The position numbers were made by a program, and so were the translations under genes. This document shows positions 1,195 through 5,782 of a DNA stretch of 10,150 nucleotides, piece after piece. Below the pieces are notes generated by a model. The model saw only the letters and a list, made by a program, of their open reading frames with translations. It was not told where the DNA came from and searched no databases. The stretch is taken from the UHGV virus genome UHGV-0195723; one strand, 5' to 3'. How positions within the stretch are numbered: position 1 is the first letter of the stretch; each line of letters starts with the position of its first letter. Source of the stretch: a virus.

Positions 1195-1226
1195 GGTGCG
1201 CATAATGTCTACGCGTTATGTTGAAA
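1195..1226. other. dif-like hybrid recombination site (prophage attL): GGTGCGCATAA-TGTCTACGCG-TTATGTTGAAA
   Basis: The 11-nt XerC arm is identical to E. coli dif. It is followed by a 10-nt spacer instead of the 6-nt TGTATA core, then an arm matching the dif XerD arm at 10 of 11 positions. It lies 78 bp past the hipA stop and in direct orientation with the perfect dif at 8507. Confidence 0.7.
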
Positions 1227-1263
1227 AGGCCGCTGCGAAAATCTCTCCCGCGGCGGCCTCTTT
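1227..1263 (-). terminator. Intrinsic terminator for the reverse-strand ORF at 1285..1626
   Basis: GC-rich inverted repeat AGGCCGCTGCG / CGCGGCGGCCT (one mismatch) with an 11-nt loop. Read on the minus strand the stem is followed directly by TTTT (complement of AAAA at 1224-1227). On the plus strand it is followed only by CTTT. Confidence 0.5.
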
Positions 1264-1284
1264 AGCATAACGTCATTGTGCGCA

Positions 1285-1626
1285 TCAGCTTGCGTCTTGC
1301 AGCCGTTTCCTGACCATTTCGAATGCTCGCTGCAACGTTCCTTTATCGGATATGTGCATGATTTCATTTGCCAACATTTTCAAAACATCATCGTTTAATT
1401 CTTTTGCCAGAACTAGGGCGCTCATTCCTAATGTGAATCGTGGTGATATGGGAACAGGCATATTGTCTTCTTCGAAGATGGCGTTTAATTCTTTCTGAAC
1501 AGATTTTTGCATGCTTGAAAAATCCTTTTCAATGAACAGGTTACGACATGTATTTATCAGCATATCTTTACGCTCTACGTTCAGCATGCTGTCAACCATC
1601 GCGTCGATTATTGATGAATCGCTCAT
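1285..1626 (-). CDS. Hypothetical protein, 113 aa, acidic, no transmembrane segment evident; prophage-encoded, function unknown
   Basis: ATG at 1626-1624 is preceded on the minus strand by AAAGGA about 7 nt upstream. A terminator follows the stop. No family recognised by eye. Confidence 0.6.
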   Translation of the reverse strand: MSDSSIIDAMVDSMLNVERKDMLINTCRNLFIEKDFSSMQKSVQKELNAIFEEDNMPVPISPRFTLGMSALVLAKELNDDVLKMLANEIMHISDKGTLQRAFEMVRKRLQDAS

Positions 1627-1755: not shown

Positions 1756-1781
1756 TGGTGCGGTTTCCCGCACTTATTTTT
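1756..1781 (+). terminator. Plus-strand stem-loop with T-run (terminator-like; alternatively a ssDNA origin or packaging hairpin)
   Basis: GTGCGG (1757-1762), loop TTTC, CCGCAC (1767-1772), then TTATTTTTT. It is one of three consecutive hairpins between 1717 and 1781. There is no obvious plus-strand gene upstream for it to terminate. Confidence 0.35.
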
Positions 1782-2082
1782 TGTACAGACCGTTTTTTTC
1801 GTTCTCTTCATAAGCTTTATTCACTCGATCATGCCGCCTTTTTTCTGCTTCTTCGTGCGCTTCGTAGAATCGAGTGTGATTCTCTGCCTCTAATGCTTTT
1901 CTTCTTATGTTGCTTACCACATCTTTAGCAGCATCTTTTGCATAATTATCAATAAGATAATTAACTATATCCGTCCATGCTATAGATGCCCCTGCTTCTT
2001 GGCTTGCATCGATAGCCAATCGTTCCATTTTGATTTTACGCTCGGCAGTAATTGCCATCGTAGTTCGCTTGAATAGTGCCAT
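1774..2082 (-). CDS. Hypothetical protein, 102 aa; candidate DNA-binding regulator (possible ribbon-helix-helix-like N-terminus, charged helical C-terminus)
   Basis: ATG at 2082-2080 with AAAGG about 12 nt upstream on the minus strand. It is divergent from the replication gene across a promoter/palindrome region, positionally like rstR-type repressors of integrative inoviruses. The fold assignment is a guess from the residue pattern only. Confidence 0.5.
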   Translation of the reverse strand: MALFKRTTMAITAERKIKMERLAIDASQEAGASIAWTDIVNYLIDNYAKDAAKDVVSNIRRKALEAENHTRFYEAHEEAEKRRHDRVNKAYEENEKNGLYKK

Positions 2083-2154: not shown

Positions 2155-2184
2155 TTGCATGCACTTGTATCTGTGTGCTATAAA
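2155..2184 (+). promoter_or_regulatory. Candidate sigma70 promoter for the replication gene: -35 TTGCAT (2155-2160), 18-bp spacer, -10 TATAAA (2179-2184)
   Basis: Hexamers read directly from the sequence. Two copies of the palindrome TGCATGCA (2156-2163 and 2202-2209) bracket the -10 element. Not verified experimentally. Confidence 0.4.
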
Positions 2185-2226
2185 TTTTTCATCGGTATAC
2201 GTGCATGCAGGCATAAGGACTTTGTC

Positions 2227-3342
2227 GTGTTCTACGATTGGTTGAGTATTGAACAGGATTTTGGCTACCAATTACCCATCCTTTCAGATGTGGCTTATCA
2301 GCGCATTCATCTTGATAGCGGTGAAGCCAGTGCCTTATCTCAACCAACCTTCCAGCACCGTGGATCTTTCTGTGATGTTGTCTCGATCTCGATCCGTGGT
2401 TCAGTGTTAAAAATGACTGGAAACCCTTCCCGCTGGGGACGTCTTGATAATCTCTTTGGCCTTCCAACTGTAGATACTTGTGTAATGGTATTTAATCAGA
2501 TCCTTACTGAACTGAAATTACCCTTATTTACTAAATGTACAAAATTGATGCCAGGACAATCTAAAGAAAATGAAAAGGCTCATTTAATAACTGATGGTGC
2601 ATTGATTAAAGAACTGCATATAACATCTAATAAATCAGTAGGGAAGGGTAATGAGGATGATTATATTTCTGGCCTTTCTACACAACCCTACAGAAATAGT
2701 GTTCCCCGACTACACTCCAATGGTAAGTCAGTTGACTGGCTTTCCAAAAAAGGTAATGTCAACCTTATATACCCAACAGTATATAACAAAGCTCATGAGC
2801 TTGAGTTGCATAGCCTTGCGAAAATTAAAAATAAATTCTCAGAGGAATCTAAAGAATTTAATTACATAATAGATATTATTAATTACTGCAAGGACAACGG
2901 CATTGTCAGGTTTGAGCAGAAATTAAAGTCTCGTTTTCTTCAAAAACAATCCCTGTGCTATTGGGGACTTTCTGATTATTCTTTGTTAAATAAGTTACAT
3001 TCTGAGTTTCTTGATCTTGATGAAAAGTTATCGGTGAATGCTATGGACTTTGAAACTATTAGTGAACATCTCATTAGTCGTGGTGTCGTTGATACAATTC
3101 GAGCTGCCAATACAACAGCCATGTATGCAATTCAATGGTTTCACGGTCATTCTTTTGATTTAAATAAAAGGCAAGTAAAACAGCATCGAGCAAGATTAAG
3201 AATGATAGGGATTGACATAGCTCAAAAATGTAATGTCTCCAAATTCTCTCCTGTTGTTGTGAAACAAACAAGGGAAATTAAAGTGACTGACTGCGTTATT
3301 CCATCATGGTATTTAAAACCATCACATTTGCGTGTGGCTTAA
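2227..3342 (+). CDS. Rolling-circle replication initiation protein, gene II-like (Phage_CRI family), about 371 aa
   Basis: Synteny as first gene of the Ff-type block. It carries a KASPAK-like block (SIRGSVLKMTGNPSRWG) and a VRFEQKLKSRFL block resembling M13 pII VRFEARIKTRYL. GTG at 2227 has AAGGA 8 nt upstream and gives an N-terminus (FYDWL) aligning with the pII N-terminus (MIDML). The ORF-track start (TTG 2155) lies inside the predicted promoter. Start codon is uncertain. Confidence 0.65.
   Translation: MFYDWLSIEQDFGYQLPILSDVAYQRIHLDSGEASALSQPTFQHRGSFCDVVSISIRGSVLKMTGNPSRWGRLDNLFGLPTVDTCVMVFNQILTELKLPLFTKCTKLMPGQSKENEKAHLITDGALIKELHITSNKSVGKGNEDDYISGLSTQPYRNSVPRLHSNGKSVDWLSKKGNVNLIYPTVYNKAHELELHSLAKIKNKFSEESKEFNYIIDIINYCKDNGIVRFEQKLKSRFLQKQSLCYWGLSDYSLLNKLHSEFLDLDEKLSVNAMDFETISEHLISRGVVDTIRAANTTAMYAIQWFHGHSFDLNKRQVKQHRARLRMIGIDIAQKCNVSKFSPVVVKQTREIKVTDCVIPSWYLKPSHLRVA
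3043..3342 (+). CDS. Possible gene X analogue (in-frame internal start within gene II, C-terminal 99 aa)
   Basis: In-frame ATG at 3043 preceded by GGTGA, by analogy with Ff pX. This is purely positional inference. Confidence 0.25.
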   Translation: MDFETISEHLISRGVVDTIRAANTTAMYAIQWFHGHSFDLNKRQVKQHRARLRMIGIDIAQKCNVSKFSPVVVKQTREIKVTDCVIPSWYLKPSHLRVA

Positions 3343-3358
3343 TTTAAAAGGTGTTTAT

Positions 3359-3652
3359 ATGAGTAGTAATTTAGGAAATCTAGAAACGACAGTTACCGGA
3401 AAAATTAAACGTTTTAACAGTAGTGGTGGTTTCTATTACACAACAGTTGTCTCTCCGGCTGCCGATGCTTACAGCTTTCCTCCTGTAATACGCATCAAAT
3501 CAAAAAAATCCTTAGGCCGTGTTGGCGAGGAAATTGTTGACGTTCCATGCCGTGTAACGGGGTACGAGCGCAGCTTCCCTTACACTGACAAGCAAACTGG
3601 CGAGCAATCTAAAGGTTACAACGTTGATATGCTGCTTGAATTGTTGGAGTGA
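3359..3652 (+). CDS. Putative ssDNA-binding protein (gene V position), 97 aa
   Basis: ATG at 3359 with AAAGGTG 5 nt upstream; stop TGA at 3650-3652. Small, beta-rich-looking, and located between gene II and gene VII. No recognisable similarity to M13 gVp by eye, so the call is by synteny only. Confidence 0.45.
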   Translation: MSSNLGNLETTVTGKIKRFNSSGGFYYTTVVSPAADAYSFPPVIRIKSKKSLGRVGEEIVDVPCRVTGYERSFPYTDKQTGEQSKGYNVDMLLELLE

Positions 3653-3753: not shown

Positions 3754-3848
3754 GTGATTTATCTTATTTCTTTGCTGCTTATTGTATCGGCTGGGTGATT
3801 TCTCACTCCATCCTTGTGTTTAAAAAACTTTCTGAGGTTTCAACATGA
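3750..3848 (+). CDS. gIX: Minor coat protein pIX-like, 32 aa
   Basis: Translation MSDLSYFFAAYCIGWVISHSILVFKKLSEVST has the length and hydrophobic pattern of M13 pIX. Its start overlaps the gene VII stop (ATGA) and its stop overlaps the gene VIII start (ATGA). Confidence 0.6.
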   Translation: MSDLSYFFAAYCIGWVISHSILVFKKLSEVST

Positions 3849-4072
3849 AAAAATCTGTTATTTCTAAAATTGTTGCAGGTTCAACTCTGGTAATTGGTTC
3901 TTCAGCTTTTGCTGCTGAAGGTGATGCTACCTCTCAGGCGAAAGTTGCTTTTGATTCTCTCACCGCACAGGCTACTGAAATGTCCGGCTATGCCTGGTCA
4001 TTGGTTGTATTAGTTGTTGGTGCAACAGTGGGAATCAAACTCTTTAAGAAATTTGTTAACCGCGCATCTTAA
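3845..4072 (+). CDS. gVIII: Major coat protein pVIII precursor, 75 aa
   Basis: Signal peptide ending SAFA, then mature AEGDATSQAKVAFDSLTAQATEMSGYAWSLVVLVVGATVGIKLFKKFVNRAS. Close to Ff/If1-type pVIII (acidic N-terminus, GYAW, GIKLFKKF, basic C-terminus). Confidence 0.93.
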   Translation: MKKSVISKIVAGSTLVIGSSAFAAEGDATSQAKVAFDSLTAQATEMSGYAWSLVVLVVGATVGIKLFKKFVNRAS

Positions 4073-4145: not shown

Positions 4146-5438
4146 ATGAAAAGATTACTTCCGCCTTTATTATTCGCATCTTTCTTTGCTAATGCTGCAA
4201 CTGATGCCGAATGCATTGCAAAACCAGAATTTGAAGCATCTATGACAAACGTCTGGAAAGATGACCAGACATTAGATCGTTATGCTAACTACGAGGGCTG
4301 TTTGTGGAATGCTACTGGTGTTGTTGTTTGTACTGGTGACGAAAATCAATGTTATGGCACATGGAAGCCTATTGGCGCAGCTATTCCTGAAGGTGGCGGC
4401 TCAGGAGGTAATGAAGGAGGAGGGGGCTCAGGTGGCGGTGATGGTGGTAACACTGGAACAGATCCAAAACCCGGATATACATATGTTAATCCTCTAGATG
4501 GAACTTATCCGCCTGGTTCCGAACAGAATCCGAATAATCCCAATCCAACGCTATATGATGAACAACCATTAAATACATGGGTTTTTCAGGGGAACAGGTT
4601 TGTAAATAAACAAGGGGCATTAACCGTTTATACTGGTTCTGTATCTACAGGCACAGACCCCGTGGTAACTAAAATTCAATATACGCCAGTTTCCTCTAAA
4701 GCTATGTACGATTTATTCTGGAATGGTAAGTTTCGGGATTGTGCTTTCCATTCAGGATTCAACGAAGATCCTTTTGTTTGTGATTATCAAGGCCAGCCAT
4801 CAGAAATTCCTCAACCTCCAGTTAATGGCGGTGGTTCAGGTTCTGGCGGTGGCGGCTCCGGTGGTGGTTCCGGTGGTGGTTCCGGTGGTGGCGATGGTGG
4901 CTCCGGTGGCGGCTCCGATGGTGGAAACACTGGAGGTGGTGACGGTGGAGGTTCTGGCGGAGGCTCAGGGACCGGAGATTTCGATTATGACCGTATGGCT
5001 AAGGCCAACAAGGACGCCATGACGGAAGAATTCGATTCTTCTGCAATTCAGTCTGATATTTCTTCCTCTTTGGATGGAACAGTCCAGAACCTTACAGACT
5101 CTGTAAAAGGCCTATCTGACAGCGTTGGCGGTCTTCTTGGTGCTGGTACTCCTGTATCTCCGGAGTTTTCTGGTGCATCTGCTGATATGCAAAAAATTGG
5201 TTCTGGTGACAGTTCACCATTGCTGGATGCTTTTACTAAAGGAAAGTTATTTCCTTCATTACCATCGGCAAAACAATGTACTCCCTTTGTTTTTGCTGCC
5301 GGAAAGAAATATGAATTCACTATAGAGTGCAAATATATTGACATGTTTAAATCTGTATTTGCATTTATTCTTTATTTCTGGACTTTTGTTACCGTTTACG
5401 ATTCTTTTGCCGGGATACTCAGGAAAGGTAAGGAGTAA
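4146..5438 (+). CDS. gIII: Attachment (adsorption) protein pIII, 430 aa, with N1 and N2 domains, two glycine-rich linkers and a C-terminal membrane anchor
   Basis: N1 segment [40 protein letters not shown] and N2 segment [16 protein letters not shown]...[12 protein letters not shown]...[21 protein letters not shown] are near-identical to M13 g3p. The C-terminal domain (GDFDY...[12 protein letters not shown]...) and hydrophobic anchor are conserved. Confidence 0.95.
4826..4972 (+). repeat. Tandem GGTGGTGGTTCC-type repeats encoding the second Gly/Ser linker of pIII
   Basis: Two perfect 12-nt units at 4860-4883 flanked by degenerate copies. A shorter first linker lies at about 4391-4450. Confidence 0.7.
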
Positions 5439-5440
5439 TT

Positions 5441-5782
5441 ATGCCAGCGTTTTTAGGATTGCCTTTGCTTGCGCGTTTTATTGGGTGGCTAGCGGGGGCT
5501 TTAATCGGTTATTTTGCAAGGTTTATTACATTAGGCATTGCACGTATTGCACTTGCAATAACACTTTTTCTGGCCTTAATTGTTGGCCTTAACCAATTAC
5601 TGGTCTCTTATTTGTCTGATTTAGTTGCAGCATTGCCAGCAGAAATATCAGATGCAATATCTTATATTATCCCTTCAAATGCACTACCTTGCCTTTATGC
5701 AATCTTTTCATTGAAGGCTGCGATTTTTATATTTGATGTAAAAGACCGCATTATTGGTTATCTTGACTGGAATAAATCATAA
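5441..5782 (+). CDS. gVI: Minor coat protein pVI, 113 aa
   Basis: AGGAG RBS then ATG at 5441. Translation aligns along its whole length with M13 pVI (LSDxxAxLP, IPSNALPC, KAAIFIFDVK, YLDW). Confidence 0.9.
   Translation: MPAFLGLPLLARFIGWLAGALIGYFARFITLGIARIALAITLFLALIVGLNQLLVSYLSDLVAALPAEISDAISYIIPSNALPCLYAIFSLKAAIFIFDVKDRIIGYLDWNKS

Follow-up and report, generated by a model that had tools for sequence, protein, structure and literature searches.

Within the 10,150 nucleotides of the viral contig UHGV-0195723 (hereafter the window), positions 1195-1226 hold a dif-like site whose XerC and XerD-like arms lie 10 nucleotides apart. This raises the question of whether so long a spacer reflects damage, an accident or the regular form of an attachment site of another kind. 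We conclude that the site is very likely attL, the hybrid junction of a CTXphi-type 'IMEX' filamentous phage that entered the E. coli dif by means of a folded attP. The long spacer is the centre of the phage attP1, most of it a bulge, and is neither damage nor accident.

The left junction and the restored dif

The elements at the two ends of the insertion are as follows:

1195-1205, plus strand: XerC-binding arm GGTGCGCATAA at the left junction, the same sequence in chromosome and phage
1206-1215, plus strand: extended central region TGTCTACGCG, 10 nt, the TGT of which is the XerC side of the dif core TGTATA
1216-1226, plus strand: XerD-like arm TTATGTTGAAA, 9/11 to dif, phage-derived (attP1) and conserved in the family
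8507-8534, plus strand: reconstituted perfect dif (GGTGCGCATAA TGTATA TTATGTTAAAT), 28 bp, at the right junction

Direct reading of the window gives GGTGCGCATAA, TGTCTACGCG and TTATGTTGAAA in this order across 1195-1226. The XerC arm is identical to that of E. coli dif (11/11) and the XerD-like arm agrees with TTATGTTAAAT at 9 of 11 positions, so the letters bear out the original prediction of a spacer of 10 nt between a perfect XerC arm and a near-perfect XerD-like arm. It had also held that the XerD side fits poorly if a core of 6 nt (TGTCTA) is assumed: direct comparison of that side, CGCGTTATGTT, yields just 2/11 matches. Hence, as it maintained, neither reading amounts to a canonical XerCD site, the centre being 10 nt long in one and the XerD side matching at 2/11 in the other. 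In the central region identity to dif is confined to the TGT beside the XerC arm, with divergence beyond it, and we infer that the XerC crossover falls at the A1205/T1206 boundary. The exact 11-mer of the XerC arm occurs twice, at 1195 and 8507, against an arithmetic expectation of about 0.005 in 2 x 10,150 positions.

The chromosomal setting of the site is well defined. The 3' part of hipA forms an ORF at 61-1116, the left junction lies just after this gene, and the first 1,194 bases of the window show 100% identity to many E. coli chromosomes. An empty site is available in FDAARGOS_144 (L003, 2695-2722), with an identical left flank and a right flank that differs by one SNP over the stretch read. 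Since the left flank in this genome runs straight through GGTGCGCATAATGTATATTATGTTAAAT into the sequence found 3' of 8534 in the window, the window contains a 7,312-bp insertion at dif, followed by the perfect dif at 8507-8534. The site at 1195-1226 occupies the exact position of dif in FDAARGOS_144 and is, as originally proposed, the left attachment junction of an element. A chance match at 1195 is ruled out by the exact 11-mer at the dif position, the known empty site and the recurrence of the site elsewhere.

The right-hand dif, a 28-bp perfect match seen in none of 200 shuffles, is itself composite, with its XerC arm coming from the phage end and its core and XerD arm from the chromosome. 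The phage-end sequence upstream of it, GCTTATCTGCGCACT, matches that of a related replicative form and of the junctions between tandem prophages (see below), while its 3' flank matches the empty site. The prophage thus has a hybrid site with a whole hairpin at one end and an intact dif at the other, and the left junction, the right junction and the empty site agree base for base with the predicted integration product. The expectation that just one functional dif is left holds, this being 8507-8534. Because the chromosomal flank directly follows this dif, the prophage in the window is solitary, a single copy.

An inverted partner and a conserved predicted hairpin

Mismatch and repeat searches independently recovered a second dif-like site in the opposite orientation, 33 nt downstream of the first, the repeat search returning it as nested inverted repeats (1194-1207/1274-1287 and 1214-1237/1249-1272). 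With it the following features can be recognized:

1260-1286, minus strand: inverted second dif-like site (attP2-like), with XerC-like GATGCGCACAA (9/11), the 5-nt centre TGACG and XerD-like TTATGCTAAAG (9/11)
1227-1259, plus strand: distal GC-rich stem-loop, AGGCCGCTGCG, an 11-nt loop and CGCGGCGGCCT, closing the hairpin
1194-1287, plus (phage-sense) strand: complete folded site attP(+) as given by fold prediction, retained at the left prophage end

In the predicted fold, the XerC arm pairs with its inverted copy, the XerD arm with its own, and the GC stem-loop closes the structure. In the centre, TG and GCG pair with the 5-nt partner, leaving TCTAC (1208-1212) as a 5-nt unpaired bulge. The plus strand of 1194-1287 is predicted to fold as DNA with a dG of -30.6 kcal/mol (z -6.5; none of 200 shuffles folds as well), the minus strand reaching only -23.3. 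The fold includes two G.T wobbles, 1223/1263 at position 8 of the XerD arm and 1196/1285 at position 2 of the XerC arm; the same two wobbles appear when attP1 and attP2 of CTXphi El Tor (PMC3089051, Table II) are paired by hand, which is either a coincidence or a shared functional feature. No known RNA family was found in the window, and a promoter and terminator scan of 1100-2300 returned nothing at the site, the 11-nt loop of the distal stem exceeding the limit of that scan.

To examine relatives of this structure, we scanned species-representative genomes and viral contigs for GGTGCGCATAATGT followed by 5-10 nt and TTATGTT, which yielded 12 loci in the former and 31 of the latter; among the genomes are Yersinia pestis, Erwinia, Enterobacter, Kluyvera, Lelliottia and Rosenbergiella. 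Queried on its own in blastn, the hairpin matched 51 complete E. coli genomes at a coverage of at least 80%. The comparison with attP of related phages that the original prediction called for thereby gave the same architecture in 38 distinct sequences of a module of about 92 nt. The original prediction had allowed that related elements might expose the site as an unrelated chance match; they conserve it instead.

The spacer is 9 nt long in two of these versions, 10 nt in six and 11 nt in 30, and there are 21 different spacer sequences among them, the 6-8 nt after TGT being hypervariable. Such variability in both length and sequence fits an unpaired bulge. The centres of the relatives, 9-11 nt, are paired with 5-6 nt in the partner. 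Since the search pattern prescribed the XerC arm, TGT and TTATGTT, these do not count as conservation; sharing of the TGT is seen independently just in the window, in L001-L016 and in the replicative form.

The fold was assessed in 37 distinct versions after alignment, with G.T scored as a pair. The predicted pair cells are paired in 96.1% of cases, as against 27-56% after displacing the partners by 1-3 columns. In four pairs both members have changed, and on none of the five measures used did any of 500 shuffles attain the observed value, the 37 versions being close relatives (mean column identity 90%) in which the covariation comes from few events. For instance, L005 has a compensatory C-G to T-A change in the distal stem (AGGTCGC/GCGACCT), the last centre pair has gone from G-C to A-T in Rosenbergiella, and the pair of XerD arms in Erwinia tracheiphila shows several joint changes. 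Variation across the module versions is concentrated in the bulge and the loop: outside the columns fixed by the pattern, mean column entropy is 0.90 at unpaired and 0.18 at paired positions (p = 6e-7). The fold is more stable on the plus than on the minus strand in 36 of the 37 versions, because G.T pairs become A.C on the other strand. As all structural genes lie on the plus strand, this advantage fits the plus strand being the packaged one.

A related phage is represented by its replicative form, a 7,439-bp circle deposited as 'plasmid unnamed4' of E. coli A37 (L001, NZ_CP195780.1), a strain that also has a chromosomal copy (hit H7). In the circle the phage end, ...CTGCGCACT, stands directly 5' of GGTGCGCATAA TGTGCTACACG TTATGTTGAAA and the hairpin; its attP is intact, and the XerC arm directly precedes the phage spacer. 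The strain SW071618 and the IMG/VR contig L045 carry prophages that are about 96% identical and arranged in tandem with the same junction between copies; such tandem-copy junctions with an uninterrupted site are seen in L002 (1594, 8781) and L045 (27, 7336). In general the relatives form tandem arrays at dif (L002, L045, L061, L062).

A more distant second family of hairpins (L026, 3970; L035, 2; L018, 131, minus strand) shares the XerC arm and has a centre of 9 or 11 nt, with a much longer and unrelated distal stem-loop. The inverted XerC arm is perfect in L026 and L035 (TTATGCGCACC) and imperfect in L018, which has the 11-nt centre. The host labels of this family (Actinomadura, Pseudomonas sp.) are odd for an E. 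coli-type dif arm, and contamination may explain them.

Routes of integration

An established system with this architecture is CTXphi, the cholera-toxin phage of Vibrio cholerae, in which attP1 has a 12-bp centre and the inverted attP2 one of 5-7 bp, neither being usable as duplex, and in which integration proceeds by XerC-only exchange and is irreversible (PMC4246890). The two sites pair in the (+) single strand to form attP(+) and replication completes the process; the hairpin is masked in duplex DNA, so that the prophage cannot be excised (PMC4246890, PMC3442271, PMC3089051). The element in the window resembles CTXphi attP(+) (Val et al. 2005, as reviewed in PMC4246890, PMC3089051 and PMC3442271) in having two inverted dif-like sites, with an over-long centre that starts with TGT in the left-junction site (12 nt in CTXphi, 10 here) and a short one in the partner (5-7 nt in CTXphi, 5 here). 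The difference between top and bottom centres is about 5 nt and the XerD arm starts with TTATGTTGA in both; both also restore an intact dif at the far end, do so without a phage integrase and have relatives in tandem arrays. In contrast to CTXphi, where the arms are about 90 nt apart and the hairpin is forked, here they are about 33 nt apart and are closed by a simple GC stem-loop. Further differences from CTXphi are the E. coli host and an Ff/If1-like backbone with its own gIV secretin; the fold here is known as a prediction.

To the anatomy, the junctions and the conserved, co-varying predicted fold described above, the analogy with CTXphi would add XerC-only catalysis, a single-stranded substrate and irreversibility. 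In this scheme, the two inverted sites, attP1 with its 10-nt and attP2 with its 5-nt centre, would anneal in the packaged (+) single strand into a duplex with a XerC site, a short bulged centre and a XerD site, closed by the GC stem-loop. As in CTXphi, host XerC and XerD would bind this hairpin and dif, XerC would exchange one pair of strands at the boundary between the XerC arm and TGT, and replication would turn the resulting pseudo-Holliday junction into a prophage. The product would consist of the chromosomal XerC arm, the phage TGT through the XerD arm, the loop, the inverted attP2, the phage genome, the phage XerC arm and finally the chromosomal core and XerD arm. The order seen in the window is that expected if the cut in a single-stranded circle follows the XerC arm within the 5' arm of the hairpin.

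The fate of the prophage can be considered along the same lines. The left junction would be inert for XerCD/FtsK and give no Xer excision because the duplex attP halves lack a usable centre (10 and 5 bp), while dimer resolution would use the restored dif at 8507-8534. By analogy with CTXphi, Xer excision would not occur at all, since the double-stranded state of the prophage precludes the hairpin. The earlier view that XerD exchange and excision are poor at this site agrees with the CTX model, its reasoning being incomplete in that the inverted partner at 1260-1286 was missed. Likewise, dependence on XerC only, which it had proposed for excision, would in that model suit integration and not excision. 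Production of CTXphi virions from the chromosome needs a tandem array. On this analogy the solitary copy in the window is probably locked in; it may not produce virions, and may be silent unless a replicative form persists. For Ypfphi, insertion of a superinfecting phage between the copies of a tandem array has been reported, at the counterpart of this imperfect site and perhaps through homologous recombination (PMC4266046); judging from this report, the imperfect site may be not fully inert.

The junction products would be identical if a double-stranded attP1 met dif via XerC, as in an IMEX of the VGJphi type; the duplex 1195-1226 would then itself be attP, both junctions would be usable and XerC excision would be possible. 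In the centre, identity to dif is restricted to the XerC side, a trait that VGJphi shares (PMC4246890) and that is compatible with this route, as is the coexistence of circular and integrated copies in E. coli A37, although circles are equally expected from replication of a tandem array or from unintegrated infection. However, attP of VGJphi is a single 29-bp dif-like site (PMC4246890), whereas the centre in our modules measures 9-11 bp, its length differing between near-identical versions, and an extended centre is what makes duplex attP1 of CTXphi unusable (PMC4246890). Moreover, an inverted partner that is conserved and co-varies would be superfluous for a duplex attP. With its 10-bp centre, its conserved inverted partner and a left junction that is not dif-like in spacing, the prophage departs from the VGJ type, and we regard this route as improbable.

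Alternatively, the hairpin might be mainly a terminator or a replication or packaging structure, with incidental arms and a left site that is the decayed dif of an old insertion. Functional hairpins abound in the intergenic regions of filamentous phages, and the distal stem (1227-1259) is followed on the minus strand by TTTTC, right after a leftward ORF that ends at 1285. Yet this account leaves unexplained the inverted XerC-like and XerD-like arms around the stem, the perfect XerC arm and TGT at the exact crossover, and the repeated presence of the entire module at dif across many hosts. As the replicative form carries the intact site, this is phage-encoded and not a decayed chromosomal dif. 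We therefore judge the account very improbable as a whole; termination is plausible as a second function of the distal stem, which may double as terminator of the leftward cargo ORF, and the conservation of the stem could partly reflect it.

An IMEX of the TLCphi/GGI type, in which integration is reversible and begins with a XerD exchange at a site combining a degenerate XerD arm with a dif-identical centre, would share the location at dif and the lack of an integrase but is scarcely credible here, since the TLC type has a centre almost equal to that of dif and a XerD arm with very little similarity to dif (PMC4246890), as against a XerD-like arm with 9/11 matches and a centre that diverges after TGT (3 nt). 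A CTXphi-type folded site hence remains the preferred reading.

Backbone, cargo and the spread of the module

On sequence similarity the prophage is an If1-like inovirus with a full set of inovirus genes (gII, gV, gVIII, gIII, gVI, gI and gIV) on the plus strand:

1285-1626, minus strand: ORF of 113 aa, proximal to attP, without a family match, in a variable cargo slot
1774-2082, minus strand: ORF of 102 aa, phrog_2503 (function unknown), at the position of repressor-like genes in related phages
2155-3342, plus strand: gII (G2P), rolling-circle replication protein, 80% amino acid identity to If1
3332-3652, plus strand: gV, ssDNA-binding protein, 88% amino acid identity to If1
3845-4072, plus strand: gVIII, major coat protein, by family match and If1 comparison
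4146-5438, plus strand: gIII, attachment protein, of which just the C-terminal part aligns to If1
5441-5782, plus strand: gVI, minor coat protein, by family match and If1 comparison
5782-6846, plus strand: gI, assembly ATPase (Zot family), by family match and If1 comparison
6800-8113, plus strand: gIV, secretin, by family match and If1 comparison

If1 is the closest named phage: most structural genes are 72-75% identical to it as DNA, and gII, gV, gVIII, gVI, gI and gIV are 77-89% identical as protein. The gene gII probably starts further 3' than the TTG at 2155. In gIII, alignment to the If1 protein is confined to the C-terminal 150 residues (69%); the N-terminal receptor-binding part differs, and the phage for this reason probably has another receptor or pilus specificity than If1. 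Scans of the prophage ORFs yielded no integrase or recombinase, every ORF scanned being a canonical inovirus gene or an ORF of about 100 aa without a recombinase match. Neither Pfam nor PHROGs nor NCBIfam assigned a function to the two small leftward ORFs; at the position of the 102-aa ORF, L060 and L062 have an HTH gene.

A hairpin-rich block of about 65 nt at 1705-1769 (DNA fold z -3.25) recurs with 85-92% conservation in many dif-integrated inoviruses whose backbones have otherwise little DNA in common with the window, and matches the major intergenic region of If1 (5052-5101) at 92%. It can be regarded as a candidate for a single-strand origin or a packaging signal.

The slot following the attP hairpin holds unrelated cargo in different prophages, the 113-aa ORF being that of the window. 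For example, it is occupied by a hypothetical ORF and then a TIR-domain protein in E. coli A20, a DUF2971 protein in LD39-1, whose array members differ in cargo, and a protein of the STM4504/CBY_0614 family in NC101 (slots at 10155-11460 in L060, 10095-10895 in L061, and 820-1749 and 10088-11017 in L062). The hairpins beside the TIR, DUF2971 and STM4504 genes do not belong to non-phage islands, since wider views of these loci reveal inovirus gene sets, whether full or decayed, which identifies these genes as cargo inside prophages. Some of the slot genes look like candidate defence genes of filamentous prophages.

The module itself has been met before. Ypfphi and CUS-1phi are listed as CTX-type members (PMC4246890), the attP sites of CUS-1 and Ypf have features for ssDNA integration (PMC3089051), and Ypfphi has an inverted pair of XerC/XerD sites with dif restored at the 3' end (PMC4266046). 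Ypfphi of Y. pestis and CUS-1phi of E. coli O18:K1:H7, which are 99% identical over 7.1 kb (PMC4266046), carry essentially the same module of about 92 nt as the window. The spacer in Ypfphi is 11 nt long, unlike that of the window; in the CUS-1-like tandem prophage of NC101 it is TGTCAACGCG, one base off the window's. The other genome parts of both phages are without detectable DNA similarity to the window, and different cargo ORFs lie beside the site. By blastn, the Y. pestis locus L020 is 92% identical to the window over 88 nt and shares no other DNA with it. With just this 88-nt module aligning, membership in the CUS-1/Ypfphi lineage is ruled out at the backbone level.

If1 (Infulavirus), for all the 77-89% likeness of its backbone proteins, is site-less, unlike the prophage here: we found no site resembling the XerC or XerD arm in If1, which is annotated without an integration function, and it is thereby ruled out as carrier of the module. 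Integration of a classical Ff-like lineage at the E. coli dif has a precedent in UPphi901, a temperate relative of I2-2/IKe present in tandem with only about the first 15 dif bases repeated (PMC7307601). It belongs to another, Lineavirus-like lineage, and a hairpin is not described in PMC7307601. We found no description of an If1-like dif prophage in the literature searched, and the absence is limited to that literature. As the site type and the module are already on record for CUS-1phi and Ypfphi, only the If1-like backbone carrying the module is new.

One might go further and see in the folded attP of about 92 nt a portable cassette that moves between unrelated enterobacterial inoviruses (If1-like, CUS-1/Ypfphi and others) and makes non-integrating Ff-type phages dif-integrating, with a bulge of 6-8 nt that may be non-neutral. 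We consider this proposal in its entirety rather unlikely. Were the bulge non-neutral, it could tune the XerC-only exchange, or could let the duplex junction act as a secondary landing site, as the tandem insertion of Ypfphi hints.

The apparently defective dif is explained without a new principle, its long spacer being the signature of a folded single-strand attachment site. For annotation, a XerC arm, TGT, 6-8 nt, TTATGTTGAAA and an inverted partner form a pattern that marks the left ends of dif-integrated filamentous prophages in Enterobacterales. The relevance for phage evolution and for judging prophage stability is modest: a close relative of the site-less If1 can be lysogenic at dif by way of a module known from phages of plague bacteria and K1 E. 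coli.
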